A stretch of 54,119 bases of DNA, from positions 1 through 54,119 of the IMG/VR virus record IMGVR_UViG_3300022939_001635; one strand, written 5' to 3'. The translations under genes and the position numbers were made by a program. The stretch is from a virus. Its lineage: Duplodnaviria > Caudoviricetes. Shown here piece after piece: positions 1-37,349 of the stretch. The notes below the pieces were generated by a model. The model did not search any database. It was not told the DNA's origin and saw only the letters and a list, made by a program, of their open reading frames with translations. How positions within the stretch are numbered: position 1 is the stretch's first letter; each line of letters opens with the position of its first letter.

Positions 1-439
1 CACGGTGAAATGGCTTTACACGTTCTACGTAGTCTTCAAACCAACTCATCGGACGACTACAGTTTGATGTCATATGAACGCTAGTATAATTAGTATTGTT
101 GACATCATCAGCTAAGTGACCAAGTATGTCCAAGTACCCTGGATGAAAAGTAGGCTCGCCCCCAGACAAACTAAAATGAAAACTATTAAAACCGTTATCA
201 CGTGCTTGCTTCTTTATCTCGTCTATAGTTGTTAAACACAACTCTGTTGGTCTATGATCTTTACGGTCGCTACGGGCGTAAGGCCAGCAGTAACTACATC
301 TATAATTACAAAATCTGCCTAACAACCAAGACACTGTAAAAATATCTCTGTACAACAATGTACGTTGTCCTACTTGGACAATATCCTCAAATGGTATTTT
401 AGTGAAGTCATAATTACTCCATTTTAAATCTTCAGTCAT
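1..439 (-). CDS. radical SAM protein, 3'-truncated by the window edge (missing from the ORF track)
   Basis: Manual translation from ATG at 439: MTEDLKWSNYDFTKIP...VSWLLGRFCNYRCSYCWP...FSLSGGEPTFHP...HMTSN. It has CxxxCxxC and GGEP and is open to base 1. Confidence 0.9.
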   Translation of the reverse strand, partial: MTEDLKWSNYDFTKIPFEDIVQVGQRTLLYRDIFTVSWLLGRFCNYRCSYCWPYARSDRKDHRPTELCLTTIDEIKKQARDNGFNSFHFSLSGGEPTFHPGYLDILGHLADDVNNTNYTSVHMTSNCSRPMSWFEDYVERVKPFHR

Positions 440-445
440 ATTTTA

Positions 446-1189
446 TTATAACAGCCTATAGTTTTTTGTCAATACTTTTTGTCGTAAAAAAGGTAGCATT
501 ACTTTCTTAACATATTCTTTATGTTGTAATCTACTAGGGTGATGATCATTTTTGTGCTGATTTCTCCAAGGCTGCTGTGTATTTTTTATTAACCATTCAT
601 ATTGCGATTCTTCTATAAAATACGTATAATCAATCATGTCTTTCAAACGATCAGTTTGTATATGTTTATAGTCTTCAGCTTTCCAATCGTCTTTATACCC
701 AGCAAAAATATATCTTATATTGTTTAATTTTAAATACCATTGTAAAGCTAAAATAGCTTCATACGATTCTACTAAACTATATGTGGTATTATCATAATTT
801 TTATACCAATTTGTTATATATCTACTACGCATACCTCCGGTAGCTAAACACCAATATCCATTTACATCCTCTTCTGGCCATATAACAGGATTGACTGTAT
901 CAAATTTTTCAGAAGTTGTATTCAATACTTCGCCAACTTTATAATTGTAAAATTCTTTATCATCAAAATAAAACGATTTTCTACTCGAGCCGCTCCACAT
1001 AACTACTACCAAAACATCATTAAAATTATCGAACTGTTGTAATTGATGAATTACTCTTCTAGTAATCATAGGATTTGAAGCAGATCCTATTCCCACATTG
1101 TACAAATCAAATTTAATAATGTTGGCTAGATGATTTGGCCAAGTATAATCTCCTGCTGTAAAACTACAACCACCCGTCACTAAAAGCAT
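446..1189 (-). CDS. SGNH/GDSL-like acyl hydrolase or transferase
   Basis: N-terminal GCSFT (block I-like), G-x-G-x-SN, and C-terminal DHHP catalytic-His-like motif. Confidence 0.65.
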   Translation of the reverse strand: MLLVTGGCSFTAGDYTWPNHLANIIKFDLYNVGIGSASNPMITRRVIHQLQQFDNFNDVLVVVMWSGSSRKSFYFDDKEFYNYKVGEVLNTTSEKFDTVNPVIWPEEDVNGYWCLATGGMRSRYITNWYKNYDNTTYSLVESYEAILALQWYLKLNNIRYIFAGYKDDWKAEDYKHIQTDRLKDMIDYTYFIEESQYEWLIKNTQQPWRNQHKNDHHPSRLQHKEYVKKVMLPFLRQKVLTKNYRLL

Positions 1190-2235
1190 TTTATCTCCTC
1201 AAACCATTCTGTAAATTCAGGTCTAATTTTAAGTATATTTGTACCCCGTACTTTGTCAAGGTCAGTAATCCATTTTACAAAATATTTTTGTAAATCTATA
1301 TCTTTTTTTCCTTGTGGGAAAAATTCTTTAGGTAAAACAGTGTGTACATTTAGCCATTCAGGTTTGTAAACAAAATTGCTGTTGTGTCTAACTTTGTGTA
1401 ATCCGTTGTCTTTCAACCATTTTATACCCTTTGCTGGTTGATCATATGTTACACAATGTATTGTATCAGCTATACTCATACTATGTACATTATCGTATAT
1501 TTTTGTCAATACATTTTTTACATCATCTAACTTGTGTATTCCACCTCTACTGTATTGATATACATCGTCTTCCCAAGCATCAACACTACAAAGTACATTT
1601 ATCCAATCAAATCTTTTAAAGATTTTTAAAAGATAGTCGTCAAAAAGAGTTGCGTTTGTTATAATTCTTAATTGTACTTCGGGAACACTTGTTGATAAAA
1701 ATTCTAAAAAATCTATAGCATCTTCTTGATACAATGGTTCGCCGCCTGAAATTTCTACTCCGCCTAAATTACGCCACCAATTTATATCTATTTCTTTCCA
1801 CCATTGATTGCCTATTGTGGTATGAGTTTCAATATGATAATTATAGCCGTATTGTTCGTTTAATTTTTTTTCATCTTTTATCCAAGCAGTACTTCTGCTA
1901 CTGCTACACATTATACATTTTAAATTACACTTATTACTAAAATCAATTTTTAAAAAAAACTTTTCACCATTTAATGTAATATCATTAATTTTTAAACGTT
2001 GACTTGTTCCAATGTTTTGCTCATTCTTTACACAAATATCACATGCACCAGGAATAGGTTGTGTTTCTAATATTTTGTATGCTTGTAAAAAATCTTGTTG
2101 CTGTGTTAATTTTACAAAATCTTGAGGTTTATCAAGTTTATAACTATGTCCAAGTTGAGGTATGCTACAACAAACTTGTGCTTTGTTATCATTTCTTAAC
2201 CATATGTGTTTTGATCCTGCTTGACAATATCTCAT
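1180..2235 (-). CDS. radical SAM protein with N-terminal Twitch-like Fe-S domain
   Basis: N-terminal YC...CC...CDIC; CNLKCIMC; SGGEP; ITNAT; SVD; C-terminal LDKVRG. Confidence 0.9.
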   Translation of the reverse strand: MRYCQAGSKHIWLRNDNKAQVCCSIPQLGHSYKLDKPQDFVKLTQQQDFLQAYKILETQPIPGACDICVKNEQNIGTSQRLKINDITLNGEKFFLKIDFSNKCNLKCIMCSSSRSTAWIKDEKKLNEQYGYNYHIETHTTIGNQWWKEIDINWWRNLGGVEISGGEPLYQEDAIDFLEFLSTSVPEVQLRIITNATLFDDYLLKIFKRFDWINVLCSVDAWEDDVYQYSRGGIHKLDDVKNVLTKIYDNVHSMSIADTIHCVTYDQPAKGIKWLKDNGLHKVRHNSNFVYKPEWLNVHTVLPKEFFPQGKKDIDLQKYFVKWITDLDKVRGTNILKIRPEFTEWFEEIKCF

Positions 2236-2990
2236 TTTAAGTTTTTTAATAGTTGTTTTTCTTTTAGAAAGTGTTTTTCTATTGTTTCTTTTTCGAATTG
2301 AAATCTGTCGATATCTACTTTTAATTCTTTGTATCCTGCATTTAATTGTCTAGATATTTCTTTTGCTAAAATTCTGTTGTTATCGCCTGTCAAATGATTG
2401 TATCTCATATCTATGATACCTTTTTTTTTATATTCCCAAATATTATAATGATCAAATACAGTTGCAGTTTCTTTCCATTGAATTTTATATAAATTATCTT
2501 CAGTATCAATTACATAAGGAAATGCATTTATACGAAATACTTTTGGATCTTTTTTTATATCTTCATAGATTAAATTGTAAATAATTTTATCTTTTTCAAC
2601 ATCCTGCATGTGTGCAAAATAATTTATAGCTGACTTAAAAAATAATTTTTCTTCTCCATTATGTAACTTTTCTTTTGCTATTGCAGAATCTATATTAGGT
2701 GCAGCTAAAACATAGCCTTCGTGGGTATTAGACATACGGCTTATTCTTGAATGATCTGTACAAACAAAAATAATTTTATCAAACTCATCTCTGTTTTCTA
2801 AATATTGTTTGTAACTATAATAAAAGCAAGTTCCCGGAACAGCAAAGTTTTTTATTTTCCATGACTTATACCGATCTCTTAAATAGTTAACCCAAGGTTT
2901 ACCAAAGTCGTCTAAGTACTTATAATTTTTGTATGCAGTGTATAACACTCTTTCGCTTGCAAAACTGCACCCAAAGATACCTAGTTTCAT
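2232..2990 (-). CDS. SGNH-like acyl hydrolase or transferase
   Basis: MKLGIFGCSF, NFAVPGT, C-terminal DMRYNH. Start moved to ATG 2990, which gives an ATGA overlap with the upstream stop. Confidence 0.6.
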   Translation of the reverse strand: MKLGIFGCSFASERVLYTAYKNYKYLDDFGKPWVNYLRDRYKSWKIKNFAVPGTCFYYSYKQYLENRDEFDKIIFVCTDHSRISRMSNTHEGYVLAAPNIDSAIAKEKLHNGEEKLFFKSAINYFAHMQDVEKDKIIYNLIYEDIKKDPKVFRINAFPYVIDTEDNLYKIQWKETATVFDHYNIWEYKKKGIIDMRYNHLTGDNNRILAKEISRQLNAGYKELKVDIDRFQFEKETIEKHFLKEKQLLKNLK

Positions 2991-4162
2991 AAATGTTTTC
3001 TCCAATAGTTTTTTATTTCAGTAACAATATCTAACTCTTTTGCTTGTCTTACATTATCTAATTTGTCATTCCAATCAATGAAATGTTTTACAGCATCTAA
3101 ATCTTGAGGCTTTTCTAATTCTGTTAATAGATCAGGTAGATAAAATTGATTTGGAAATTTTTCTAAAAGTCGTTGGACCTGTTGTTTGCTTTTTTCTTTT
3201 ATGTAATCAGGTGCATGTCTAGCTTGTAATTGCTTAGGTCCAGTTAACACTCTATATTCTATCCAATGAGATCCGTCATCTCTAAAGATATCTGCTTCCC
3301 AGTTCCAAAAATCTTCTACATCTAAAATATTGTAAATTTGAAATGCACCGTTTACTGTTAAAAGAATATTTTCTTGTTCTACATTTTGTATTTCTTTAAT
3401 TTTTTTATTTAATTGGTCAAAATCATAATTATATGCACGTATATAATTGTAAATTTCACCCGTTGCATCAACACTTATATTTAAATGCAATTTTTTTAAA
3501 TTTTTCAACATATGTAATTTGTTTACATCTACTTTACTAGCATTTGTATTCACAGTAACATTTATTTTTCCTAGATCACAATAATCTTTGAGTTTATCGA
3601 AAAACTCGTATACGCTATTATCCATAAATGGTTCACCGCCGGTAATCCAAATTTGTCTTAGGTCAGACAAATCCTCACCAAATTCTTGCAAAAATTTATC
3701 TGTATCAACCTGTTGCTTTGGAGGAATAGGAACACGTCTAGCATCTATTTTTTTCCAATCTGGAATCCAAGCATTACTAAACCAAGGACCGCACATTCGA
3801 CATTTAAAATTGCATATATTGTTAAAGTTCATGTACAAATGGTAAATTTTATTTCTATCTATATCTAAATTAGATTGGTATATTCCAGTTTCGCCTAGAT
3901 ATTTTTCTTCTCGTTCTAACCATTTTTGTCTTTGACTTTTTATTCCGTTTTGTTCTTTGTAAAAACAACTTTCACAACCTACTTCATCCCAAGTTCCGTT
4001 AAGCATGTTTTTTCTCAAAGATTGAAATTCATTATTACTGTATGTTTTATGTTCAATTGGTCCCATGGACCCTAAACTCATCATACAACGAGAAACATAA
4101 TTGCCAGGATTAGCCGTTAATGTTACAAACGGCATTGGACAGTATGTTTTTTTATTAAGCAT
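2987..4162 (-). CDS. radical SAM protein with N-terminal Twitch-like domain
   Basis: YCPMPF...RCMM...CESC; CNFKCRMC; TGGEP; NTNAS; SVD; LDNVRQ. Confidence 0.9.
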   Translation of the reverse strand: MLNKKTYCPMPFVTLTANPGNYVSRCMMSLGSMGPIEHKTYSNNEFQSLRKNMLNGTWDEVGCESCFYKEQNGIKSQRQKWLEREEKYLGETGIYQSNLDIDRNKIYHLYMNFNNICNFKCRMCGPWFSNAWIPDWKKIDARRVPIPPKQQVDTDKFLQEFGEDLSDLRQIWITGGEPFMDNSVYEFFDKLKDYCDLGKINVTVNTNASKVDVNKLHMLKNLKKLHLNISVDATGEIYNYIRAYNYDFDQLNKKIKEIQNVEQENILLTVNGAFQIYNILDVEDFWNWEADIFRDDGSHWIEYRVLTGPKQLQARHAPDYIKEKSKQQVQRLLEKFPNQFYLPDLLTELEKPQDLDAVKHFIDWNDKLDNVRQAKELDIVTEIKNYWRKHL

Positions 4163-5342
4163 TTGTTATTTCCTTATAAAAACTTTGCCATTCTGGAAAA
4201 GTAGTACAAAAGTCTTGCCCTCGTGTTTGATCTAATTTGTTTATAAAAAACAAAAATTGTTCTTTTAACTGCATACGTTGTGTATTACTTTTGCGTGTTT
4301 GTTTATATTGATTTCTTAACCATTTTTTATATTTTATTTTTTTCTCTGTAACAACATTAGATTTATTTAATTGTTCGATAATATTTGCAAATTGTTTTTT
4401 TGGAAGATATCCTAAACTCATAAATTCTGGATTTGTAACACTGTTAAATCCAATGTTCACATGTTTATATCTTTCCAAAACTTTTATCATGTGTTGAGCA
4501 TTAAGCCAAGATACACTACTCAAAAAAGATACATTTCCGTTGAAGTTTAAAAATTGTTCGATGTTATTTTCTACTTTTTTCCAATCATTTTTTCCACTGC
4601 GTAGATAATTATGTACATCTTGCATTCCATCGATGCTTAAACTAATATTTACTTTAGAAAAATTTTCTAATAGGCGAACAATATCTTTTTTACCGTATTT
4701 TATGAAACTAGCATTAGTGTTTATTAATATTTCAGTATCTAATTTATTTAAATTAATCATTTCTTCTAATAGCTGATATGTTCCTTCCATCATTAAAGGT
4801 TCGCCGCCTGCTAATTTTATATATCTAACATACGGCAAGTGCTGTTGCAAATCTTCCCAAGACACATTTGCTTCAATTAAACCAGTTTTATTATCATAGT
4901 TTTCTGGAACTTTATCTAACAATAAATGATCATTTAGCCAACTATTACTCGAAGATATACCGCAAAATCTACATTTATAATTGCATAAATTACTCCATCG
5001 AATATCTAACCATTCTAATTTAAAATCTTCGTAGGTGCCATCTTTTTGTGTATTTTTTATATAGTGTTTTTTTCTGTCATTAAACACTTTATTTGCTTGT
5101 GTTCTTAAACTAAATCCTTTTACTTTTTCATCTCTATAACATTCATCGCATCCTGGTAAATGTTCATCTGAGTCTAAAACTTTTTTCCTTAAATCTTTTA
5201 AAACACTGTTAGTAGCGCCGACTTTGTTTATGGTGTCATCCATATCAAAGTAACTTTTATGAACACAACAAGGTTTAGTCATTGTTTTATCTTGCGAAAA
5301 AATAAAATGATTCCATAAAAGTGCGCAATAATTATTTTTCAT
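4155..5342 (-). CDS. radical SAM protein with N-terminal Twitch-like domain
   Basis: YCALLW...PCC...CDEC; CNYKCRFC; AGGEP; NTNAS; SIDG; LDQTRG. Confidence 0.9.
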   Translation of the reverse strand: MKNNYCALLWNHFIFSQDKTMTKPCCVHKSYFDMDDTINKVGATNSVLKDLRKKVLDSDEHLPGCDECYRDEKVKGFSLRTQANKVFNDRKKHYIKNTQKDGTYEDFKLEWLDIRWSNLCNYKCRFCGISSSNSWLNDHLLLDKVPENYDNKTGLIEANVSWEDLQQHLPYVRYIKLAGGEPLMMEGTYQLLEEMINLNKLDTEILINTNASFIKYGKKDIVRLLENFSKVNISLSIDGMQDVHNYLRSGKNDWKKVENNIEQFLNFNGNVSFLSSVSWLNAQHMIKVLERYKHVNIGFNSVTNPEFMSLGYLPKKQFANIIEQLNKSNVVTEKKIKYKKWLRNQYKQTRKSNTQRMQLKEQFLFFINKLDQTRGQDFCTTFPEWQSFYKEITNA

Positions 5343-6049
5343 AATAGTATTCCTGTTTGTGATAAATCTTTTGTAACAGTAAAATACTTATTCACATTAT
5401 CTTTACTTATAATGTCATTTATGTTTAAATTTCCTTTTATATGTTTTACAAGATAATTTGCAAATTCTTTGTTTTGCTTTAAACTCATATGACAAGGTCT
5501 CAATTTGTTATCTTCAACACCTGAATACTTGGCTTTGTTTTTGTCTTCAAAATGATAATGATAATCTAATGATTGTATATTTTTTAAATTACTATCAGTA
5601 AAATCATCAAATGCATATAGTAACAAAATATTTGGATCATTAAATTGTAAACTATCAATGATGCTTTGTATATAAATTTTTTGATTGTTTGGATAATGAG
5701 AAACTTCAAACATTTTATTTTTATAGATTTTTTTATCTACATTGCTTAAATTATAGTTATATCTTTGTGTATTATGTTCAATTGTTTCATTAATGTTACT
5801 AATTCTAGTAGTCCATAGATGATCAAAATTATCAAAAAAACTAAATCTGTTGCTGTGTGTTAAAACAAATATATTTTTTTCATAGTTTTTATAATTTTTC
5901 AAAAAAATAGAATATGAATATACTGCACTAGATGCAGAAACTGCAAAATTATCAATCTTTGTATTTAAATTTTTTTCTAATAATTTTGGCCATGCTTGCA
6001 CATTACTTCCACTGTCTGCAAAACTATCGCCATAAATTGCTATACTCAT
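5339..6049 (-). CDS. SGNH-like acyl hydrolase or transferase
   Basis: IAIYGDSF (GDS block I), NFAVSASS, C-terminal RPCH. Paralogous to 2232..2990. Confidence 0.65.
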   Translation of the reverse strand: MSIAIYGDSFADSGSNVQAWPKLLEKNLNTKIDNFAVSASSAVYSYSIFLKNYKNYEKNIFVLTHSNRFSFFDNFDHLWTTRISNINETIEHNTQRYNYNLSNVDKKIYKNKMFEVSHYPNNQKIYIQSIIDSLQFNDPNILLLYAFDDFTDSNLKNIQSLDYHYHFEDKNKAKYSGVEDNKLRPCHMSLKQNKEFANYLVKHIKGNLNINDIISKDNVNKYFTVTKDLSQTGILL

Positions 6050-7215
6050 ATAAAATATTCCGTAAATTCTGGTACAATATGTATTAAACTTTGTTTTCTA
6101 CTTTTATCTAGTTGAAATGTGTAATCGATAAACTTGTCAAACTTATCGCTCCAGTCTTCTGCATACATATAATCAATTATGCCTTTTACTTTTGGAGTGT
6201 CTAAGTAAGGCATTAAATTTTCAAATGCTTTATCTTTAAGTTCAGGAGGTAACACTCTTATGTTAAGTTGCTCTGGATGATTTAAAATATTAAAATATAT
6301 TTTATGTTCATAAGGTAATGCCCACTCAATAAACTTATGTAAATGCAAAATATTGTACATTTGCACAGTACAGTGTATTTCAATATTTACTTTTCCTCTA
6401 TTTCTTACTTTTTTAAAATTTTGCTCAATTTTTATCCAATTACTTGGATATCTAATATATCTATCTAATGCTCCAATTCCGTCAATACTACAGTTTAATT
6501 GGATTTTTTTAAATTTATTCCATTTGTTTAACATTTTGTCTGGAATATTTGTTAAATTTGTATTATATTTTAATTTTATTTTATTTGATGTACCTTTTTC
6601 AATATAATAATCTAACAAACGATACTGTTCTTCGATAATTGTAGGTTCACCACCAGTTAAATATATTTCTTCAACCGAATCCGCTATCAATTCTAAATTG
6701 TCCCAAACCAAATCATTTGATGGCCAATCCATATTTTTTAATCTATTATACTCGCTTTCTTCTAGTGCATTTTCAACTAAGTGCCATTCTTTAACCCATT
6801 GATTACTTGCGTATGGATTGCACATACGACATTTTAAGTTACATAGATTTCCTAAACGTATATCAACATAACGTATAGTGAACGGTGCTTCTACAGTATA
6901 ATCTCTGTCTTGCGCCCATTTGTCATTCCAATTTTGTCTAGTGCTTGTTATACCAGCATCTTCTTCTCTAAAACAACGTGTACACATTTCAGGACGTTCG
7001 CCATTTAACATTTGTTGACGTATAGTTTTGTACGTTTCACTATTCCATGCTTCTTTGATGTTGTCTTTGTATATCCGATATCTTGTGCCATCTTCTTTGG
7101 TGATAAAATTCTTTCCAGGAGTGCTGTTACAGCATACACGTAAAATGCCACTGGCACTGGTTGCTAAACTCATCCACGGTAAAACACAAAATGTATCGCT
7201 AGGATTTTTTGTCAT
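6046..7215 (-). CDS. radical SAM protein with N-terminal Twitch-like domain
   Basis: FCVLPW...RVCC...CTRC; CNLKCRMC; TGGEP; YNTN; SIDG; YIRYPS; LDKSRK. Confidence 0.92.
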   Translation of the reverse strand: MTKNPSDTFCVLPWMSLATSASGILRVCCNSTPGKNFITKEDGTRYRIYKDNIKEAWNSETYKTIRQQMLNGERPEMCTRCFREEDAGITSTRQNWNDKWAQDRDYTVEAPFTIRYVDIRLGNLCNLKCRMCNPYASNQWVKEWHLVENALEESEYNRLKNMDWPSNDLVWDNLELIADSVEEIYLTGGEPTIIEEQYRLLDYYIEKGTSNKIKLKYNTNLTNIPDKMLNKWNKFKKIQLNCSIDGIGALDRYIRYPSNWIKIEQNFKKVRNRGKVNIEIHCTVQMYNILHLHKFIEWALPYEHKIYFNILNHPEQLNIRVLPPELKDKAFENLMPYLDTPKVKGIIDYMYAEDWSDKFDKFIDYTFQLDKSRKQSLIHIVPEFTEYFI

Positions 7216-8687
7216 GCTATGTCCTTATAATATGATTCTAATTTTTTCTCTAAAAAATGTAATTGTTTCTCATCCCATCTAACATTATACCCTAAATCAT
7301 TAGCAATTACACTTAATTCTTTTCTACGTTTTACTCTTACATCAAATGTTAGATCTTCAACAACTGTGCTTTTCCAAAACATCATATCTTTGTTATGCAC
7401 TGGCATATCATGCAAAGGAGAATCAGGAAGTATACCTAATGTTTGTCCTAAGTTAATATCTGCAACACTGCCGTTTGGGCCATCAGGATCAATTACACTG
7501 CTATTTCTATCTGCATAATATTTTAAAAATTTTATGTTTTCTTCATAATCTTCGTGTGTTTCTGTTGGATATCCAACTATAAACATTAATGTACAGTTTA
7601 TGTTATTCTTAAGTAATTCATCTATACTAAAATACATATCCTCGTTGGTAAATTGTTTATCCATGTGATTTCTAACATTTTCAGATGCAGATTCTATACC
7701 TATACTTGCCCAACGCATTCCTGCTTTTTTCATTAATTTGTAATCTTCTGCAGGACTTTGTCGTTCACTTCTTATAATAAACTGCCCACCCCATCTAATA
7801 GCTGCTTCTGGTTCCGGATTGTTTTCATGGTACTCTGCCATAACTTCGCAAAGTTCTCTAAATGCTTTCATACTACCGTTGATTAAACTATCGCTAAAAA
7901 AATGTGTTCTACTGCCATAAAGTTTTTTATTTCTAATTAATTCTTCAGCAATATTTTTTCCACTACGATACCTAAACTTTTTCCAAAAGGCACCGATATC
8001 GCAAAAACTGCAACGTCTAACACATCCTCTGCTACCAGTTAATGTAATTTTTTGAATACGCCCATAATCATCATAATAATCACTGTAATCAGGAAACGGA
8101 ATACTATCTAAATCGTCAATTTGATTATATGTAGTTGAGTTAATTCCTGGATAATTTAAATTTCCTTTTAAAAGTTCTACTAGTGCTAGTTCGCCTTCGC
8201 CGTCAATAAAATAATCAGCTAGATTTTGTTCCAACATAGTATCGCCATAGTCTTTTTTACCGCCCATTGTTACACCTAAGCCTGTCCCACCTAACACAAT
8301 TTTACTATCAGGCAACACTTCTCGTAACGACTTGCACAATATACTTGCTGATTTTTGACTGTTTTGACTAAACACACTGACTCCAATATACTCTGGTTGT
8401 AGTGGTGCTATCTTTTCTAAGACATAATCTCTATAGTAATCTAATAGTAAGTTGTATATTTCTTTATCTTGTGGATCGGCATGTATACCGCTATGCCAAT
8501 CTGCTAACAAAAAACTGTTTACTTTTTTACTGTCTTCTTTTCCAAAGTATTCTTCACTATCTCTAACAAGATCAAAACATCTACTTGTAAAACCATGAGG
8601 ATTTAGTGCTCCTTTTAAATAATAAATTGCAGGAGCAGGCACTCGTGTTTCCATTACAGGAGTGCTTATTAAAACAATATCAACCAT
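7212..8687 (-). CDS. cobalamin-dependent (class B) radical SAM enzyme, probable methyltransferase
   Basis: N-terminal B12-binding Rossmann-like region (IGVSVF, KIVLGG, GEGE), LDSIPFPDY, SRGCVRRCSFC, GIESAS, FIVGYPTET. Confidence 0.9.
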   Translation of the reverse strand: MVDIVLISTPVMETRVPAPAIYYLKGALNPHGFTSRCFDLVRDSEEYFGKEDSKKVNSFLLADWHSGIHADPQDKEIYNLLLDYYRDYVLEKIAPLQPEYIGVSVFSQNSQKSASILCKSLREVLPDSKIVLGGTGLGVTMGGKKDYGDTMLEQNLADYFIDGEGELALVELLKGNLNYPGINSTTYNQIDDLDSIPFPDYSDYYDDYGRIQKITLTGSRGCVRRCSFCDIGAFWKKFRYRSGKNIAEELIRNKKLYGSRTHFFSDSLINGSMKAFRELCEVMAEYHENNPEPEAAIRWGGQFIIRSERQSPAEDYKLMKKAGMRWASIGIESASENVRNHMDKQFTNEDMYFSIDELLKNNINCTLMFIVGYPTETHEDYEENIKFLKYYADRNSSVIDPDGPNGSVADINLGQTLGILPDSPLHDMPVHNKDMMFWKSTVVEDLTFDVRVKRRKELSVIANDLGYNVRWDEKQLHFLEKKLESYYKDIA

Positions 8688-29305: not shown

Positions 29306-29334
29306 ATTATATGATAACTTAACTTCGAAGTCAA
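29306..29334 (-). promoter_or_regulatory. sigma70-type promoter, probably leaderless, heading the 30-gene run
   Basis: TTGACT (29334-29329), 17-nt spacer, TATAAT (29311-29306). ATG at 29299 follows after only 6 nt, with no SD. Confidence 0.8.
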
Positions 29335-29369: not shown

Positions 29370-30812
29370 ATGGCAGATTTTATACCAGGTGAAGCATATA
29401 GATTAGATATTGTAGGCGCAGACGAATCTACACTTGTCGATAGTTGGCAAGGTGTTATTAAAGCAGATGTTGTATCAAACGAAGGATTAATTCAGGTTGA
29501 TGTTTCAACTGGAAAATTATATGGACCATTAGTTGGTGACATTCATGATCCAGAAGGTAATGTAGTTTATAATGCCAGCGAACGTTTATTTAAAGCAGAT
29601 GTATTAGGTAGTGTATATGATAACAGTGGCGCAACAAAACTTATTGACGGTATTAATGCTAGAATCAATGCGCCGGTTTACGGAAATGTTGTTGATCCAG
29701 AAGGCACAACTATTGTTGATGCTTCAAATAGGACTATTTCTGCTACAACAATTACAGGTGATTTGTATGGAGATGTCTATGGCAACATCACAAGCGAAGG
29801 TGTTGTATATGGTACATTTAGTGGCGACTTTAACGGTACTTCATATGGTGAATTTTTTGGTAATAGTGTAGGCGAGCACACTGGCGATGTTATTGGCGAT
29901 GTTACTGGTAATGTTACTGGTGTTGTTTTTGGTCGTTTAGATGGTACTGTTACTGTTACCTGGACTGAAGAAGAAGGACCAGTTCCACTGCATGGATGGA
30001 ATCCACAATTTAATCAACACGAATTTCTTGGAGGTATAGGTTCACCCCACATGCCAGCTGAAGGCGAAACTGCAAGAGGACCAGTTTTAATAGTTGGGGA
30101 AAATAGAGGAGAAACTGCACTTAGAGCAAATGTAATCCATTACAATGGCCAAGAAATTATTACACTACACGATCCTGTTGATCCAACTAATGCGTATGCA
30201 CCTGCAACCATAAGAGGACATTTTGATGGCAAGGTTATTTGGGAAGATCCAATTGATGAATGTCAAGATGTTTTAAGTTGTAGTGAGCAAGGAACTGTGT
30301 TACACGCTGTTAATGGTGTAGTAACAATTGGTGGTTATATTACAGATGATATAGATTGTGACATAAATATTTTTTCAGATGCAATTACAGTAGAAACAAG
30401 CACAGATGAAGAATTTTTAAATGTTAAAAATTATAATGGTACGGTAACTGCAAAAACTGCTATAGGACCTGACAACACACTTGCAATTATTTCAAGTGCA
30501 GGTTACAATGGAACAGACTTTGTTCCTGGTGGAAGGTTTGGTATCTATGCAGATGCTACACCAACAGATACACACGTAGAAAGTAAATTTATTGTTAGTT
30601 TGCCAAAAGGAAACGCCAATACTGAGCATACTAATCCAAGACGTTTGAGCTTTGATGGCGACGGTGTACTCACAGTACCAGTGTTCAAAGCAAGAGGTAC
30701 AACTTTTGCAGACAGAGATAGTATGATTGCAGAAGCAGGTATGATTATTTTCAATGTTAACACAAATAAATTCCAAGGGTATGACGGAACTAATTGGATT
30801 GATTTACACTAA
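29370..30812 (+). CDS. virion structural or fibre-like protein
   Basis: Acidic and Gly/Thr/Val-rich. It has ~23-aa G(D/N/S)V.D..G..(V/I)D repeats, a GD(V/L)xG run, and C-terminal GMIIFNVNTNKFQGYDGTNW typical of phage fibre modules. Confidence 0.65.
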   Translation: MADFIPGEAYRLDIVGADESTLVDSWQGVIKADVVSNEGLIQVDVSTGKLYGPLVGDIHDPEGNVVYNASERLFKADVLGSVYDNSGATKLIDGINARINAPVYGNVVDPEGTTIVDASNRTISATTITGDLYGDVYGNITSEGVVYGTFSGDFNGTSYGEFFGNSVGEHTGDVIGDVTGNVTGVVFGRLDGTVTVTWTEEEGPVPLHGWNPQFNQHEFLGGIGSPHMPAEGETARGPVLIVGENRGETALRANVIHYNGQEIITLHDPVDPTNAYAPATIRGHFDGKVIWEDPIDECQDVLSCSEQGTVLHAVNGVVTIGGYITDDIDCDINIFSDAITVETSTDEEFLNVKNYNGTVTAKTAIGPDNTLAIISSAGYNGTDFVPGGRFGIYADATPTDTHVESKFIVSLPKGNANTEHTNPRRLSFDGDGVLTVPVFKARGTTFADRDSMIAEAGMIIFNVNTNKFQGYDGTNWIDLH

Positions 30813-30821
30813 AAGTAAAGG

Positions 30822-31871: not shown

Positions 31872-32457
31872 ATTTGAAGCGTACGACGGATCACAAGATC
31901 TAACACAATGGTTTGAAGATGCAGAAAAGCATGGATACTACAATAATAGTAGTAAAGAAATGCTTATTGATTATATTGCAAAATACGAAGATGCAACTCT
32001 ATTTTTACTTTACTACAACGATAAAATTGTAGGTAACAGTGTAGTGCATAGTTTAAAAAGCCTAGGTATACTAGGAAAAAATGCCTATCGTATTGGTGCT
32101 AGAACTTGCTTAGTTAGAGACCATATTGACGGTAATAGAGTTTATGCTCCTAGATCGTGGGGACCAATAAATCATCATACGCTACAAATGTTATTTCCAA
32201 TTTGCATTGAACATGTTGGTAGAGATAAACCAGTTTATATCAGTACGCACGAAGGCGGTGTAGGCAGTCAAAACCGTGTTCATAGAGTTTGGACTAAGCG
32301 TTTTACTAATCAACTCGGTGTAACAAAAGATCCAATTGAACTAGAATACAAAGGCACATTTCAAACATTTTATCGTATCGACGTTGATCGCTTGTACGAA
32401 TTGTTAAAAGATGCAAGATGGCCTGAAGCAGAACAAGCTGTTCCGCTTTTTAGTTAA
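31828..32457 (+). CDS. hypothetical protein, possible GNAT-fold acyltransferase
   Basis: LFLLYYNDKIVG strand followed by YRIGARTC. Coupled to the adenylation gene. Start uncertain (could be TTG ~31864). Confidence 0.4.
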   Translation: MTIYVKFLGIKNLYRFEAYDGSQDLTQWFEDAEKHGYYNNSSKEMLIDYIAKYEDATLFLLYYNDKIVGNSVVHSLKSLGILGKNAYRIGARTCLVRDHIDGNRVYAPRSWGPINHHTLQMLFPICIEHVGRDKPVYISTHEGGVGSQNRVHRVWTKRFTNQLGVTKDPIELEYKGTFQTFYRIDVDRLYELLKDARWPEAEQAVPLFS

Positions 32458-33827
32458 ACATACTTTTTACAAAGTTCAAAAAAATCTGACATTTCAGGAA
32501 ACGCTGCGGTAAAATCATTTCCGCGGCGTTTGTCTTGTTCTGTAAAGAAGTTATGAAAATCTCTACGTCCTTGAATAATTTTATCCAATGGATATTCTGT
32601 AGTTTCCATGTAGTCTACAACTCTACGAAACTTTTCATACTCAATAGTACTAAAGGCATCTTTACGATTATCATCTACGTTCTCTTTTATAAATTGTAAA
32701 TGATCATACATATAACTCATATAATTTTTTGGCAGTATGTTGATATCGTATTGCAATGGCTCTTTTAAATGTGGTGTATCAAAACCCAAACGCTGCCATC
32801 TGTGTGTTTCAACATCGTTGTACTTAGCACGCCATTCTAATATTTTTTCTAATAGTGTGCGGAATGTTGTTACACTGAATATGTTAAACGTAATCATCAA
32901 CACCATAGGTGCTTCACAGTTGCGCATAAAATAATCCAAGTTGCGTTCAAACACCTCAACGTCTAATCCGTCACGTATGTATTCTGCACGTTTGCCCCAA
33001 GTATCAATACTTGTAAACATTTTAAAACGTTTTATTTTATTGTCTGTTAGCAAGTCATTTACACGATTTGTAAACTTTTCTAACTGCTTTGGTTTTCCAC
33101 CTAAATTGCTGTTGCAGTTTAGTTCCAGTTCTGGCTTAGGATCTGCGTCTAACATATCAAACAGTTTGTATGTGCTTTGTTGTATTGTTGGCTCGCCTCC
33201 TGTTATACGCAGTATGTGTAGCTCTTTACTAAGCTCAGGCCACCACCGCCAAAATGCATCTAAATATGGATTATTTTCTTCTTCAAATATTTGAAACCAG
33301 TCAATATCACATCGGTGATTTTTTACGTTTGTGTACGGACCGTGCTGTTTGATTTCTTGATAGTATCTGCTGCTGGCTTTGGGATGACAGTATCCGCAAC
33401 GGAAATTACATTCGTTGCCAAACGATACTTCCAAGTATTCAGGATTTACATCAAACTCTGCACCACCTTCTTTTACAGCATTTAGTCTATGCTTGAAAAA
33501 AATAGTTTGATTACGTTGTTTGCGATCACTAACATAATCTTTACCCATTGCTTCAATTTTCCAGCAATAGTTGCAACCACTAGGCTGTTCACCACGCATC
33601 ATAGCAGCACGTTCTTGTTTCTTTTGCGCTGTATTGTGTATTGCACTTGGATTTTCTAATAATGGTGCTGTGTCAATCTTATGAGGAGCGGGGTGATAAC
33701 AACTGTGTGTTTCTCCTGTTTGAAAATATATATTTGCGTGATACCACTTTGCAAAACAAAACGTAGGAGATATTTCCTGCGTAATAGCATCAATACGCTT
33801 GATTTCTTCGCTTTCGCTACGCTCCAT
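32454..33827 (-). CDS. radical SAM protein with N-terminal Twitch-like domain (His-rich variant)
   Basis: FCFAKW...HSCYHP...CNYC; CNFRCGYC; TGGEP; NSN; SID; YIRDG; QDKRRG. Confidence 0.9.
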   Translation of the reverse strand: MERSESEEIKRIDAITQEISPTFCFAKWYHANIYFQTGETHSCYHPAPHKIDTAPLLENPSAIHNTAQKKQERAAMMRGEQPSGCNYCWKIEAMGKDYVSDRKQRNQTIFFKHRLNAVKEGGAEFDVNPEYLEVSFGNECNFRCGYCHPKASSRYYQEIKQHGPYTNVKNHRCDIDWFQIFEEENNPYLDAFWRWWPELSKELHILRITGGEPTIQQSTYKLFDMLDADPKPELELNCNSNLGGKPKQLEKFTNRVNDLLTDNKIKRFKMFTSIDTWGKRAEYIRDGLDVEVFERNLDYFMRNCEAPMVLMITFNIFSVTTFRTLLEKILEWRAKYNDVETHRWQRLGFDTPHLKEPLQYDINILPKNYMSYMYDHLQFIKENVDDNRKDAFSTIEYEKFRRVVDYMETTEYPLDKIIQGRRDFHNFFTEQDKRRGNDFTAAFPEMSDFFELCKKYV

Positions 33828-34744
33828 TAATTTTCTCTATCTAAAAATTTTGTACTGTTGTCTCTTACAGGATTTTGATATACACTTTTAAAGAATGCAC
33901 TTTGTTGTGCATTTAAACATTCTTCAGCGATTGGAATGTCTAATTCGTGAATTAGTTTTGCACCAAGATCTTCGGTTTGCTCTTCCATATCAGAAATGTC
34001 TTTGGTACTCCAATAATTGTTCAAATAATCAAAGTCACGTACATTTATATAATCCCAGTCTGTACACATGGTCTTGTATAGACCTTCTCTTGCACCATGT
34101 ATCGCCCAACGTCCGTTTTCAACATCAGCACCTACCATTAACCAAATATAAAGTCTGTGCAAGTTTTTCCAATGGTTACGTTTAAAGCCTTCATAGTCAG
34201 GCCGTACACCTTGATCTAATGCCATTTTAACACCTTCACGGAAACCAGCACGCCAGGCTTGCTGTGGTGTTGCATTGTTGTGTATGGTACTAAATGTACC
34301 ATTCATTTGTATGTACTGAGTATCCCAACAAAAGTCTACTTGTGCATGTGGATTGTCTGCAGGTGCATTTTCATGTGTACGCATATTTAGAACATGCTGT
34401 TTAGGCCAACACTTTAATCCACCGTTGCCGTAACTAAGTCCATTGATAATATTTTTTGCTGTCCAGCTAATAACCTTGTTAGTCAAATCTGTGTCTTCGT
34501 CAAAATCAATAGATTGATTTAAAAAGTCATCATTTATAATATTGTCAGCATCAACAGTAATAAATCTGTCTGTTGTAGATTTTTCTGCTGCTGCTTTGTG
34601 CGCACTATCGCTGCCTTTTACCCCACTAACGTGTTCAGCCCAAGGGCATTTGCTAACTAAATCAGCATAATTTTTTTCTGCATTTGGTTCATCGTAACTT
34701 AGATAGATAATGTCATAGTCAACGACTCTAAATGTATTACTCAT
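33827..34744 (-). CDS. glycosyltransferase-like protein (paralog of 28247..29299)
   Basis: YLSYDEPNA, AHKAAA, TVDAD (DxD), YGNGGLK, AWRAGFREG. Confidence 0.6.
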   Translation of the reverse strand: MSNTFRVVDYDIIYLSYDEPNAEKNYADLVSKCPWAEHVSGVKGSDSAHKAAAEKSTTDRFITVDADNIINDDFLNQSIDFDEDTDLTNKVISWTAKNIINGLSYGNGGLKCWPKQHVLNMRTHENAPADNPHAQVDFCWDTQYIQMNGTFSTIHNNATPQQAWRAGFREGVKMALDQGVRPDYEGFKRNHWKNLHRLYIWLMVGADVENGRWAIHGAREGLYKTMCTDWDYINVRDFDYLNNYWSTKDISDMEEQTEDLGAKLIHELDIPIAEECLNAQQSAFFKSVYQNPVRDNSTKFLDREN

Positions 34745-35285
34745 TTACTACCTCAAAAAAGTAACTGTCAAATCTACGTGTAGTATACACTGAAATTTCA
34801 TCATCGTCAAATTCAAAATTGTCTGTAAAAGGTAATTGCATAGTTTCATCAAAGTTTAGTAGTTTGTACAGTACGTTTGGATCACTTTGTTTAGTTACAC
34901 TAAAATAATAATTACTCATATCAATTGTTATTTTTTGATCATTTATTTGTTTTTCAAACGTTTTATCAATAGACAGTTGCCATTGTCTTTTTAAATTATT
35001 TTTTGTAATTACTATTTGTTTTTCTTCCGGCACAGTTGTAGGAATCTCATATAAAAATGCCCACATGAGTTTGTCATCGTTAAGTTGTTTTTGGCTTTTG
35101 ATGTTATATTTTTTTTCTATAAAATCAAACTCAACTTTGTGTTCTAATAAACTACACTTTCCTGTGATAAAATCTTCTACCTCAGTAAAATCTACTTCTA
35201 AGTTTTGAAACCTATCATCTGGTTTATTTGTAATTTTGTAAATAGATCCGTCTTCTTCAAAGCACACATAACGTTTTATCTGCAT
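34737..35285 (-). CDS. hypothetical protein
   Basis: 182-aa ORF in the operon with no recognised motif. Confidence 0.7.
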   Translation of the reverse strand: MQIKRYVCFEEDGSIYKITNKPDDRFQNLEVDFTEVEDFITGKCSLLEHKVEFDFIEKKYNIKSQKQLNDDKLMWAFLYEIPTTVPEEKQIVITKNNLKRQWQLSIDKTFEKQINDQKITIDMSNYYFSVTKQSDPNVLYKLLNFDETMQLPFTDNFEFDDDEISVYTTRRFDSYFFEVVNE

Positions 35286-35286
35286 A

Positions 35287-36135
35287 TTATATTCCTAAAT
35301 ATGTTTCATATTTTTTTACAATATTACTTGTAACAAAATCTTTTTCTGTATAATGAAAAATACCAGTTTGTTGATAATTGCCAATCTTTAATTTTAGTTC
35401 ATTATCTAAATAAACACCTACTCTGTCTTGCCATCTATAACTAAAATTATCTATCCAATTTTGCACTTTTGGTTTCATGTGTACAAAACTTGGATATCTA
35501 GTTTTTTCGTTTGTAATTAAATGTTGATTATCCATTATTAAACTTGCTATTGCTGCTGTTATATCCATACTAGGATGCGGTAGGTGTTTTAATGAATTGT
35601 TGACCTGCATATAAAATTGTTGCCAATTATTGGTAATTAGTTCTAACCAATTATTAAACTCGTGTGCTGTGTCACTCTTTTTAAAGTAATGAAATCCGTT
35701 GTATAAATTAGGCAAATTAAAATTATAAAATATTTTTCTGTAATGAGAATCTTTTGGAATTTGTTCCCCTCTATATGTAGTAACAGTACTTGTATAAAAT
35801 AGATCATAATTTTGTAAAAAATCAAACCACAAGGACAAATCATCCAATACAAGCATATCAGTGTCTATAACAGCCGTTTCAGTATAGGGAATCGCATGAT
35901 AAATTTTCCAACGGTTACTAACTTTCCAATTTTCATTTTCGGCATGATCTCCCCACGGAATATCTACAATGTCATCAAAAACTTGTTTATACTTTGTAGG
36001 AACTGGATCATTTGTAATTAAACAAATTTTGCTGTTTTTGTTTGTAGCTTTGATACTCATAGCTGCAAGATATGCTTGACGCACGTAGTCAAAATCACTG
36101 TTTTGTGCCAACATTGTAAAATTATTTGTTTTCAA
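35287..36135 (-). CDS. glycosyltransferase-like protein (GT-A, GT8-like)
   Basis: AMSIK, ICLITN, FDDIV, PYTETAVIDTDM (DxD), NGFHYFKK, late H motifs (FVHMK, FHY). Confidence 0.7.
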   Translation of the reverse strand: MKTNNFTMLAQNSDFDYVRQAYLAAMSIKATNKNSKICLITNDPVPTKYKQVFDDIVDIPWGDHAENENWKVSNRWKIYHAIPYTETAVIDTDMLVLDDLSLWFDFLQNYDLFYTSTVTTYRGEQIPKDSHYRKIFYNFNLPNLYNGFHYFKKSDTAHEFNNWLELITNNWQQFYMQVNNSLKHLPHPSMDITAAIASLIMDNQHLITNEKTRYPSFVHMKPKVQNWIDNFSYRWQDRVGVYLDNELKLKIGNYQQTGIFHYTEKDFVTSNIVKKYETYLGI

Positions 36136-36955
36136 TAATTCTCTCCAAACTAAATTTGTTCATCACATGACAATTGCTGCCTTTTAATTTTACAGCAGTA
36201 TATTCACCAAACCTATTTGTTTTCTGCACTAAAATTTTGATTTCGTCATCTACTATGTCAATTAATACATCTTTATCTATAGCATAAAACTTTTTACCAG
36301 GCAATGCACCTGCAAATTCTCCAGCTTGATAGCCATTCATAATGTGTATTGCCATACTAAATGCAAAATCATTTCTAAACACTGTAGTCCTAAATTGATA
36401 CATGCTTCGATAATGTAGATAGTTTTCATGTATGTGTTTAATTAAATCAAAAAATATTTTTGTATCTTGAGATTTTCTAAAAAAGAATACTGTTGCCCAG
36501 TAAAAATCAACACTAGTATCGCTTACCCTTTGGAATTCAGGAGTACCTGTATGTATTCCTATGTGTGTAGCATCTTTATAGATTAGAAAGTTTTTGTTTT
36601 GTATAAAACAATTATTCAGTAAATTATTTGAAATAATAAAATCTGTGTCCATGACAATAGTTTGTTCATAGGGAGTTAAATCATATGCAAATGCTCTATC
36701 GTTATTATAAAATTTAGTTATTTTATCATACATATCGCCGTCACAATGGCGCTTGGTGGTGCTTTTTGCCACTGATAATGTAGATGGAATAACTTGATCA
36801 AATACCTTTGATTGTTCTTTTGTTAATTTGTTACTTGTAACTAAACTAACAGGTAATTGTAAATACTTTTCAATCCGTTTTGCCAAATATACTGCTTGTT
36901 TTACATAATCAATACTTCCATTGTTATTGGCAAATAACAATACACCTCTGCTCAT
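36122..36955 (-). CDS. glycosyltransferase-like protein (GT-A, GT8-like paralog)
   Basis: VSLVTS, FDQVI, TPYEQTIVMDTD (DxD), WATVFFFRK, FRND, HVMNK. Confidence 0.7.
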   Translation of the reverse strand: MSRGVLLFANNNGSIDYVKQAVYLAKRIEKYLQLPVSLVTSNKLTKEQSKVFDQVIPSTLSVAKSTTKRHCDGDMYDKITKFYNNDRAFAYDLTPYEQTIVMDTDFIISNNLLNNCFIQNKNFLIYKDATHIGIHTGTPEFQRVSDTSVDFYWATVFFFRKSQDTKIFFDLIKHIHENYLHYRSMYQFRTTVFRNDFAFSMAIHIMNGYQAGEFAGALPGKKFYAIDKDVLIDIVDDEIKILVQKTNRFGEYTAVKLKGSNCHVMNKFSLERIIENK

Positions 36956-37299
36956 AAATTAACAACACTTTCTACAGTTCTGTTTTTCTTTAATTGATTG
37001 TATTCAACAAGATAACTATTTGCTGCTTCAAAGTATTTGGTAACAATTTCACTTAAAAAATTGTTTAAATCATCTACTGCAATAGGCAAATCATTATCAT
37101 CAATCAAGATAGTTTCGTCTTGATTAAGACTAACTAAACTTTGACAAAAACTTACAAGTCCTTGTGTAACTGTAAATTGCCCACCATTGTAATAATATAC
37201 AAGATTTTCTTGATATTGCTCTTTTAACAATCTTTTTTGATTGTTTAATGTAATCATATAATTGCTATGATCAAGTGCTTTCTGAAGACGTTCGTCCAT
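36952..37299 (-). CDS. hypothetical phage protein
   Basis: 115-aa ORF with AGGAGG RBS (37305-37310), first gene behind a consensus promoter. Confidence 0.75.
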   Translation of the reverse strand: MDERLQKALDHSNYMITLNNQKRLLKEQYQENLVYYYNGGQFTVTQGLVSFCQSLVSLNQDETILIDDNDLPIAVDDLNNFLSEIVTKYFEAANSYLVEYNQLKKNRTVESVVNL

Positions 37300-37320
37300 G
37301 TATTCCTCCTACATAACATT

Positions 37321-37349
37321 ATTATATAGTAGTTTTTTTCGATTGTCAA
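37321..37349 (-). promoter_or_regulatory. perfect-consensus sigma70 promoter
   Basis: TTGACA (37349-37344), 17-nt spacer, TATAAT (37326-37321). Confidence 0.85.

Follow-up and report, generated by a model that had tools for sequence, protein, structure and literature searches.

What could a tailed phage do with 19 radical S-adenosylmethionine (SAM) genes lined up beside its tail genes? The question is raised by the virus record IMGVR_UViG_3300022939_001635, whose complete sequence of 54,119 bp (CheckV completeness 14%) was analysed and is called the window here. Open reading frames (ORFs) of at least 100 amino acids (aa) were numbered o1 to o45 by rising coordinate (n = 45). The CxxxCxxC motif is present in 19 of the 45 (o1, o3, o5, o6, o8, o9, o10, o11, o14, o15, o16, o17, o18, o20, o22, o24, o26, o27 and o33); 18 of these ORFs lie within positions 2-27016, and the nineteenth, o33, is located at 32454-33827. 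The island which they form is read here, tentatively, as a soluble, cytoplasmic locus of an uncultured jumbo phage for the building and tailoring of carbohydrate, with fibre or baseplate proteins of the phage itself as the most likely acceptor.

The observation itself, an island with 19 radical SAM genes, is real and striking. The Pfam model Radical_SAM (PF04055) scored above its gathering score of 29.5 bits in 17 of the 19 proteins; o26 (20.9 bits) and o33 (24.7 bits) stayed below it, and both are clear paralogs of other members. Since the genes are homologous radical SAM genes, the 19 motifs are not attributable to chance. An initial annotation of this DNA had counted 19 CxxxCxxC genes, 18 of them in the first 27 kb, and this count was exact. 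Its statements that the array runs off the window (o1, at 2-439, is truncated there) and that the island lies directly downstream of baseplate/fibre genes were likewise confirmed; the preceding genes, on the same strand, encode fibres and a giant structural protein.

Radical SAM genes of the island

Four kinds can be distinguished: thirteen of the proteins carry an N-terminal twitch domain, five possess a C-terminal Cys-rich cluster domain and fall into two groups (o1, o14 and o20; o26 and o27), and one (o9) is class-B-like. The genes are the following.

o1, 2..439, minus strand: o20-type radical SAM gene, C-terminus cut by the window edge; Radical_SAM 46.9 bits
o3, 1180..2235, minus strand: divergent N-terminal-twitch radical SAM gene
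o5 and o6, 2987..5342, minus strand: N-terminal-twitch paralogs; Radical_SAM 53.4 and 51.7 bits
o8, 6046..7215, minus strand: N-terminal-twitch radical SAM gene with an N-terminal SPASM match
o9, 7212..8687, minus strand: class-B-like radical SAM gene, N-terminal domain resembling B12-binding domains; Radical_SAM 67.7 bits
o10 and o11, 8680..11149, minus strand: N-terminal-twitch paralogs
o14 and o13, 12569-13318 and 12190-12576, minus strand: split o20-type radical SAM gene, core (o14) and Cys-rich C-terminal piece (o13); Radical_SAM 56.1 bits for o14
o15, o16, o17 and o18, 13315..18124, minus strand: four consecutive N-terminal-twitch paralogs
o20, 18628..19782, minus strand: radical SAM gene ending in a Cys-rich (SPASM/twitch-like) domain; Radical_SAM 39.1 bits
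o22, 20589..21917, minus strand: N-terminal-twitch paralog
o24, 22752..24152, minus strand: best-conserved N-terminal-twitch radical SAM gene
o26 and o27, 24897..27016, minus strand: two radical SAM paralogs, Cys-rich domain at the C-terminus, N-terminal twitch absent
o33, 32454..33827, minus strand: N-terminal-twitch radical SAM gene of the conserved core

All-against-all comparison and alignment placed o3, o5, o6, o8, o10, o11, o15, o16, o17, o18, o22, o24 and o33 in one paralog family, with identities of 20-37%. The family corresponds to NCBIfam NF033640 (N_Twi_rSAM, "twitch domain-containing radical SAM protein"). This model was run on o3, o8, o11 and o24 and yielded 403.8 bits for o8, 354.3 for o11 and 423.8 for o24, with a cut-off of 170; the other nine paralogs were assigned by BLAST and alignment. 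The divergent o3 differs in scoring under the cut-off (150.9 bits), with all 7 cluster cysteines kept. Four N-terminal cysteines (C10, C28, C78 and C81), the CxxxCxxC motif and a GGE motif, which the paralogs share with NF033640, are invariant in all 13, and therefore none of them looks decayed; the equivalent cysteines C9, C27, C90 and C93 are invariant across 68 sequences. A Pfam SPASM match was obtained N-terminal to the radical SAM core in seven paralogs, in three of them above the cut-off.

The family is large (8,480 representative clusters at E <= 1e-30), and literature searches yielded no functional study of NF033640. Homologs of o24 number more than 2000; the 120 listed are 80-90% identical and come from marine and other metagenomes, on contigs of up to 353 kb. 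In phages radical SAM enzymes are rare: of the phage records deposited (n = 50,697), three contain the family, namely those of two Vibrio phages and of the cultured Ralstonia phage RsoM2USA. The island described here has 19 radical SAM genes over 34 kb. In a FastTree phylogeny of 249 members the paralogs of the window did not form one clade and were intermixed with sequences from Bdellovibrionota; many branches were long. The AlphaFold2 (AF2) model of o24 had a mean predicted local distance difference test score (pLDDT) of 90.7. Its structure matches, among them CteB, SkfB, anSME, viperin, DesII and BlsE, covered the common radical SAM core alone (TM-score about 0.3), and the fold search found no close solved structure.

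Among the remaining six genes, o1, o14 and o20 are one paralog group, in which the radical SAM core is followed by the Cys-rich domain, and o26 and o27 constitute a separate pair. Viperin-like antiviral nucleotide synthesis was considered for o1 and o14 and was rejected, the scores being 42-55 bits with a cut-off of 180. The B12-binding model PF02310 gave 25.7 bits for o9, under its cut-off of 32.1, and the best NCBIfam matches of this protein are B12 radical SAM families with 85-98 bits, all far under their cut-offs. The ORFs o14 and o13 overlap by 8 bases and together correspond to one 353-aa ORF of a member of the Bacteriovoracaceae (L104:16025-17086). A separate o13 ORF was found also in a relative (L059:14420-14785), and the split may thus be stable.

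The carrier phage and its relatives

The contig is a fragment of an uncultured marine jumbo phage, which belongs to a large uncultured clade. Its viral nature, presumed in the initial annotation, is evident because the tail genes match those of cultured jumbo phages and because relatives of 137-257 kb share the island; a check for terminase was positive in three of five such relatives. The tail region contains the following genes.

o39 and o40, 37350..39462, minus strand: paralogs between the fibre genes and the island; o40 resembles an ORF of RsoM2USA at the equivalent position
o41, o42 and o43, 39484..44981, minus strand: three tail-fibre paralogs with a common N-terminus, matching tail-fibre PHROGs; Collar domain in o43 (51 bits)
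o44, 44981..45583, minus strand: conserved structural or baseplate protein of jumbo phages; phrog_11259, 231.7 bits
o45, 45610..54117, minus strand: giant structural protein of the virion (more than 2832 aa), continuing beyond the window; phrog_10938, 351 bits; FG-GAP repeats

Matches to o44 were found in 93 deposited phage records, with identities of 55% to Sinorhizobium phage Phosso, 53% to Agrobacterium phage Atu_ph07 and 45% to enterobacterial jumbo phages of 337-383 kb; a DNA-level search of the tail region against deposited phages gave no match. Nearly all 45 ORFs are on the minus strand and overlap tightly, so that the order of transcription on that strand is from o45 to o1 and the intergenic sequence of the window totals 559 bases. 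The GC content ranges from 26 to 39%, and there are no tRNA genes in the window. The sequence is present in 18 DNA runs from salt marsh.

In IMG/VR, 177 loci encode a relative. Five large records (137-257 kb), 38-72% complete according to CheckV, imply a genome of about 350 kb; each of the five contains 10-20 matches to NF033640 and 10-19 matches to Radical_SAM, and in all five the distance between a homolog of o44 and the first radical SAM gene is about 12 kb at most.

A cultured relative of the locus is available in RsoM2USA (343.8 kb), where the module comprises ORF346-354. The order there is giant protein, fibre-like genes, and homologs of o40, o38, o37, o36, a small gene, and homologs of o34, o33, o29 and o28; thus, the order of the core genes after the giant protein and the fibre genes is shared with the window. 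Identities amount to 39% for o38, 31% for o37, 34% for o36, 45% for o34, 35% for o33 (at the equivalent position), 43% for o29 and 28% for o28. RsoM2USA has just two N-terminal-twitch radical SAM genes, compared with 13 in the window. Directly upstream of its module lies ORF361, which encodes a giant protein of 2541 aa and is likened to o45 by size and position; the protein was detected in virions by mass spectrometry (PMC8504454). The genes of the module were annotated as hypothetical in that study, and the available part of its text does not contain the word "radical" (PMC8504454).

The core o38-o37-o36-(o35)-o34-o33, with o29-o28 further on, follows the giant protein and fibre genes also in the relatives G001, G003 and G005. 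Some members of the array recur in relatives, namely o24 (83-90% identity), o27 (58-75%) and o1 (77-91%, in G001, G003 and G005); for most of the remaining radical SAM genes in G001 and G003, identity to any gene of the window is no more than 25-30%. Relatives with 80-91% identity in the flanking genes have different sets of radical SAM genes. In G005 a gene similar to o17 is followed directly by the ortholog of o1, where the window has about 15 kb (o16 to o2) in between, and in G001 the ortholog of o8 abuts that of o1. The synteny comparison proposed in the initial annotation has therefore shown a conserved core with glycosyltransferase-like genes beside the fibre genes (RsoM2USA, G001, G003 and G005), and a variable content of radical SAM genes.

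Two further observations were made on the relatives. About 13 kb between two o33-like genes (G001:C1:141328-154242) are without a homolog in the window and include a radical SAM ORF of 667 aa; by their sequences, relatives hold further, different cassettes. A single in-frame TGA was present in one N-terminal-twitch homolog of three records (G001:C1:223219-224286, G002:C1:33266-34327 and G004:C1:31854-32921), and could reflect codon recoding, a pseudogene common to the three or a feature of the sequencing.

Glycosyltransferase-like genes and other features of the island

Between the fibre genes and the array, the conserved core includes, besides o33, the following genes.

o28, 27220..28263, minus strand: conserved core protein, possible class I methyltransferase; no Pfam match above threshold
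o29, 28247..29299, minus strand: GT-A-like protein, paralog of o34
o34, 33827..34744, minus strand: GT-A fold protein with an invariant DxD
o35, o36, o37 and o38, 34737..37299, minus strand: start of the conserved core; o36 and o37 paralogs, o35 and o38 (115 aa) of unknown function; no Pfam matches

The initial annotation had listed four GT-A-like genes with DxD motifs, which turned out to be two pairs. For o29 and o34, which belong to one family, the claim is supported by a modelled GT-A fold and by D65 and D67 of the DxD, invariant in 11 sequences of the family. The AF2 model of o34 (pLDDT 81.5) had exclusively GT-A proteins as top Foldseek hits (WrtF, PBCV-1 A64R, SunS, RmlT and TarP; E from 3.3e-4, probability 0.99-1.0), and a second aligner, VIA, yielded Z 10.3 with a root-mean-square deviation of 3.0 A for 142 residues aligned over model residues 4-159. 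On this model, o34 is likely to act as a transferase on sugars. A PDB sequence search with the o29/o34 family gave nothing; of the 120 listed homologs only four match PF13641 or PF00535, perhaps through a domain fused to them, and among the deposited phages the o34 family occurs in RsoM2USA only. For o36 and o37 the indication is a language-model lead in Atlas, obtained with o37 (Mannosyl_trans3, Glyco_transf_8 and Nucleotid_trans clusters; score 0.95, 163-166 shared features), which makes both of them candidate GT8-like transferases. A lead of the same kind (Methyltransf_31 clusters, score 0.94, 193 shared features) is what the methyltransferase assignment of o28 amounts to, and the assignment is correspondingly weak.

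Associations of the radical SAM family elsewhere also point to carbohydrates. Seventeen long proteins (817-2330 aa) match the N-terminal-twitch profile at E <= 1e-10, and four of them are fusions with glycosyltransferases (three GT2, one WbsX). Methyltransferase domains were present in four of the 17, one together with a sulfotransferase, one with WbsX and three with tetratricopeptide (TPR) repeats; five or six consist of tandem copies, and three, for example P0246, are fusions of a class-B radical SAM protein with an N-terminal-twitch protein, similar to o9 plus o8. The genes o9 and o8 adjoin in the window and are fused in three metagenomic relatives of 891-893 aa, to whose C-terminal half o8 is 68-70% identical.

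A scan of one genome per prokaryote species, for which an alignment of four paralogs was used, the alignment of all 13 being too divergent, detected 192 relatives; 68 of the 79 loci kept were labelled Bdellovibrionota, some of them on megabase chromosomes. Three genomes of Bdellovibrionota and one unclassified metagenome-assembled genome (MAG) of 4.0 Mb possess 9-16 copies of the family each, in several clusters, compared with none in 14 control genomes. The arrays of Bdellovibrionota also hold genes similar to o27 (three to four times in arrays L092 and L104), to o1/o14/o20 and to o19. When 10 flanking ORFs of three arrays were tested, three proved to be glycosyltransferases, namely a GT2 (114 bits), a PMT_2 membrane protein and a GT1-like protein; elongation factor G, a Leu/Phe-tRNA transferase and a transposase were also among the flanks, and the setting of these arrays is therefore cellular.

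The highest identities between the window and Bdellovibrionota were 75.5% for o1, 63.7% for o24, 52% for o17 and 49% for o8. At loci L104 (OZ242254.1, a chromosome of 2.9 Mb), L091 and L099, genes are 64-75% identical to o24 and o1, an unusual closeness between a phage and a cellular phylum. From these sequences, recent gene exchange or a hint at the host could be considered. Bins of MAGs assigned to Crocinitomicaceae and Gammaproteobacteria contain relatives of o8, o5 and o6 with 44-67% identity (L081, JBDNIA010000282.1; L082, NZGL01000008.1, a contig of 108 kb); the gammaproteobacterial MAG (1.2 Mb) has 11 family members, nine on one contig and two on another. These are probably phage contigs of the clade of the window which were placed in bacterial bins.

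The other genes of the island are listed below.

o2, 446..1189, minus strand: DUF6071, 34.1 bits; SGNH-like N-terminal G-C-S block (motif only)
o4, 2232..3005, minus strand: paralog of o7; SGNH-like by motif only; no Pfam or PHROG match
o7, 5339..6049, minus strand: SGNH-like, GDS at residue 7; paralog of o4; no family match
o12, 11150..12178, minus strand: weakly nitroreductase-like C-terminal part, 18 bits, under the cut-off
o19, 18081..18644, minus strand: short protein (187 aa) resembling short-chain dehydrogenases/reductases (SDR); adh_short 16.6 bits, NCBIfam YdfG 26.1 bits
o21, 19772..20596, minus strand: PP-loop ATP pyrophosphatase-like protein, paralog of o23; SGGADS at residue 40
o23, 21914..22765, minus strand: PP-loop protein, paralog of o21
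o25, 24145..24885, minus strand: SGNH-like motif, GSS at the N-terminus and DEAHLT near the C-terminus; no family match
o30, 29370..30812, plus strand: fibre-like, every fourth residue a glycine along about 60 positions
o31, 30882-31871, plus strand: short ANL adenylating enzyme; AMP-binding 50.1 bits (cut-off 29.9)
o32, 31828-32457, plus strand: unknown; no Pfam or NCBIfam match

The enzyme functions proposed for these genes in the initial annotation fared unequally. The ANL ligase is secure with o31, which scores well above the AMP-binding cut-off; its NCBIfam matches, to acyl-CoA and amino-acid adenylation families, are all under cut-offs. The two QueC-like genes retain part of their description: in an alignment of 17 sequences of o21 and o23, SGGADS, TRSCEG and the C-terminal cluster CxxCxWCxER are invariant in a QueC-like layout; on the other hand, no QueC model of Pfam matched o21 or o23, PF06508 was above cut-off in none of five records, and a PDB profile search found weak PP-loop motif matches only (E 0.07). 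The four SGNH-like genes are weak candidates, since o2 matches DUF6071 and o4, o7 and o25 were recognised by motif; the N-terminal G-x-S block is present in all four, and a clear DxxH-type block in o25 only. Weak, too, are the SDR o19, which is 44% identical to an ORF of Bdellovibrionota inside a radical SAM array, and the nitroreductase o12. PDB sequence searches with o12 and o30 gave nothing. Between residues 4 and 117, o12 has weak similarity to an interior segment of families of giant tail-fibre or virion proteins (phrog_4527, E 1.2e-6; phrog_5342, E 1.2e-5; and phrog_701). The fibre-like o30 varies between relatives (34-73% identity), with a conserved C-terminal segment, FQGY.GT.WVDLH, and its C-terminus weakly matches tail-fibre PHROGs.

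Promoters of the sigma-70 type were found at the following positions.

37321..37349, minus strand: consensus TTGACA-17-TATAAT, 12 of 12 matches; in the gap upstream of o38
29306..29334, minus strand: near-consensus, 11 of 12; intergenic, upstream of o29
30822-30849, plus strand: near-consensus, 11 of 12; intergenic, upstream of o31, divergent partner of the promoter at 29306-29334
38531-38559, minus strand: near-consensus (11-12 of 12); upstream of o39
445-472 and 1232-1259, minus strand: near-consensus (11-12 of 12); just upstream of o1 and o2

Four of the 12 near-consensus promoters of this type in the window (upstream of o39, o38, o29 and o31) fall in the 559 intergenic bases. Their sequences suggest several transcription units for host polymerase inside the island. 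Within positions 20001-40000, four RNA libraries from salt marsh yielded contigs of 200-580 nt whose sequence equals that of the window over o24, o29, o30, o31, o34, o37/o38 and o39-o41; such contigs may hold DNA, give neither strand nor level, and were not counted as proof of expression.

Interpretation and comparison with known systems

A role in carbohydrate metabolism is proposed because of the GT-A model of o34, the glycosyltransferase fusions in four of the 17 long family members, and the position of the sampled Bdellovibrionota arrays, in genomes with 9-16 copies of the family each, beside glycosyltransferases. The glycan reading is the best supported of those considered, yet the support is indirect. 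From the initial annotation, the phage contig, the number of radical SAM genes, the conserved core with glycosyltransferase-like genes and the link to carbohydrates have been retained; its QueC reading has not. Its suppositions of a glycan on virion proteins and of one tailoring step for each radical SAM paralog stay hypothetical. We infer the chemistry, the acceptor and the membership of the genes in one pathway. The transferases of the GT-A type (o29 and o34, probably also o36 and o37) would attach sugars to the acceptor, and the radical SAM enzymes, using the 5'-deoxyadenosyl radical and an auxiliary Fe-S cluster, would remove hydrogen from sugar carbons; oxidised, epimerised, deoxygenated or C-methylated sugars could be the products. 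Amide, acyl and methyl decorations might be added by the PP-loop, SGNH-like, SDR-like, methyltransferase-like and ANL enzymes. Swaps of radical SAM cassettes between relatives would then change the glycan, in the way in which bacterial O-antigen loci vary.

None of the 45 ORFs contains a transmembrane-like segment, and no flippase, polymerase, ligase or priming (lipid-carrier) transferase was recognised in the window; hence, unless machinery of the host takes part, the work would be cytoplasmic and its acceptor soluble. Virion proteins are favoured as acceptor because of the absence of membrane-protein genes, the fibre-like o30 inside the island and the conserved position; the virion appears to be a reasonable guess for the target.

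Several points weigh against the carbohydrate reading. No Pfam or NCBIfam glycosyltransferase model matches any protein of the window, which applies also to the four GT-A-like genes of the initial annotation, and PF00535 has no match in any of five relatives. The GT-A fold is common to nucleotidyltransferases such as MobA and IspD (VIA Z 9.0 against o34), and no gene for nucleotide-sugar synthesis was recognised in the window. Among the generic neighbours of the o24 model, peptide maturases (CteB, SkfB and anSME) rank ahead of sugar enzymes (DesII and BlsE). A second set of 10 long family members is without a glycosyltransferase domain (TPR repeats in two, an FkbM methyltransferase in one, tandem copies or unknown parts in the others). 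The strongest promoters of the island resemble those of host sigma-70 and are separate from the fibre operon, which could mean early rather than late expression. Finally, synteny among related phages is to be expected from common descent.

The same chemistry could have another target: a glycan of the host envelope (lipopolysaccharide, capsule or glycolipid) might be remodelled during infection by way of host lipid carriers or export, for example in order to block superinfection or to prevent progeny from sticking to debris. The membrane GT-C (PMT_2) and the GT2 beside the Bdellovibrionota arrays are typical of envelope glycans, early expression from the sigma-70 promoters inside the island would fit, and the cassette variability resembles that of O-antigen loci; however, such a role is unlikely in view of the lack of membrane protein, priming transferase, flippase and polymerase among the 45 ORFs, of the position after the fibre genes, which is conserved as far as RsoM2USA, and of o30 within the island. 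It is rather improbable that the radical SAM enzymes modify proteins or peptides (cross-links, epimerisations, oxidations), on virion proteins or a product resembling ribosomally synthesised peptides with post-translational modifications (RiPPs), with the glycosyltransferase-like genes as a side activity. The best matches among solved structures are indeed maturases, that is SkfB (E 2.9e-15, core only), the RiPP cyclopropyl synthase 8vpo, CteB and anSME, the sub-threshold NCBIfam matches are mostly peptide maturases, and fusions with TPR repeats exist, but these structure matches span only the common core with its low TM-score. Pfam, which is not sensitive for RiPP recognition elements (RREs), found no PqqD/RRE-type domain in the 19 proteins; the tight overlaps, with 559 intergenic bases, leave little room for precursor genes (ORFs of at least 100 aa being considered), and the GT2 and WbsX fusions and the neighbouring glycosyltransferases point to sugars.

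Twitch radical SAM enzymes, class-B methylases, adenylating enzymes, amidating PP-loop enzymes and transferases are the usual kit of pathways for aminoglycoside- or nucleoside-like compounds, and the island contains a set which fits this kit, including a family N-terminus matched by the twitch of BtrN. A free small molecule of this type, acting on the host or on competitors, is nevertheless an improbable product, as the searches recognised no cyclase, aminotransferase or nucleotidyltransferase that would form a scaffold, no exporter is encoded, and the position in the structural region is conserved. Hypermodification of phage DNA or nucleotides (deazaguanine or sugar) against restriction would be suggested by the QueC-like Cys cluster of the PP-loop proteins and by weak QueE and viperin matches of small radical SAM genes. 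This explanation is scarcely credible: TGT/DpdA (PF01702) and QueC (PF06508) above cut-off were found in 0 of five records each, so that a deazaguanine link is not supported, QueE reached 42 bits or less with cut-offs of 206-260 and viperin 55 with 180, and it is the structural region, not the replication genes, that houses the island.

If the carbohydrate reading is extended, a widespread clade of marine jumbo phages would coat its fibres or baseplate with a radical-hypermodified glycan and vary this coat by swapping cassettes, and the N-terminal-twitch family (about 8,500 clusters at 50% identity) would be a large unrecognised class of carbohydrate-tailoring enzymes, exchanged with predatory Bdellovibrionota; in this breadth the proposal is doubtful. 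Should the enzymes indeed tailor sugars, a new field of radical carbohydrate chemistry and a new route for the variation of phage surfaces would be opened. Since Bdellovibrionota share genes with the phage at up to 75% identity, one may ask whether genes pass between these two sorts of predators of bacteria. Since the cultured RsoM2USA carries the core module, the question is open to experiment.

Literature searches found no description of such an island. According to the initial annotation, no characterised phage pathway has this many radical SAM genes, a statement to be qualified by the marine T4-like viral genome TARA_ERS488813_N000010 of 183 kb, for which 12 radical SAM genes and a gene for an A-type Fe-S carrier were mentioned in passing in 2017 (PMC5332604). 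This is also an uncultured marine phage rich in radical SAM genes, likened to the window by gene number alone; in the available part of that paper it is discussed solely in connection with the supply of Fe-S clusters (PMC5332604). As to a possible connection with that genome through Fe-S supply, none of five relatives of the window yielded an A-type carrier gene.

The analogy with BtrN drawn in the initial annotation is limited to the twitch domain. BtrN-type twitch radical SAM enzymes act on sugar-like substrates, and like the family described here, BtrN consists of a radical SAM core and one auxiliary-cluster (twitch) domain; its twitch (residues 186-257) aligns to the N-terminus of the family with E 0.0068. 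In contrast to BtrN, where the twitch is C-terminal, it is N-terminal here, and beyond the core the similarity in sequence and fold is low.

Virus-encoded glycosylation as such has precedents. The chlorovirus PBCV-1 encodes A64R, a soluble GT-A enzyme, which Foldseek places among the best matches of o34 (E 4.7e-4), and mycobacteriophages with glycosylated virions have transferase genes near structural genes. In both systems the virions are glycosylated, whereas the window is known from its genes alone, and to our knowledge neither system includes radical SAM enzymes. Bacterial loci for O-antigen or capsule offer a further comparison. The island differs from them in its lack of genes for export, polymerisation and membrane proteins and in the dominance of radical SAM genes; it resembles them in its conserved flanks, in the gain and loss of cassettes between close relatives, and in the mixture of transferases with modifying enzymes.

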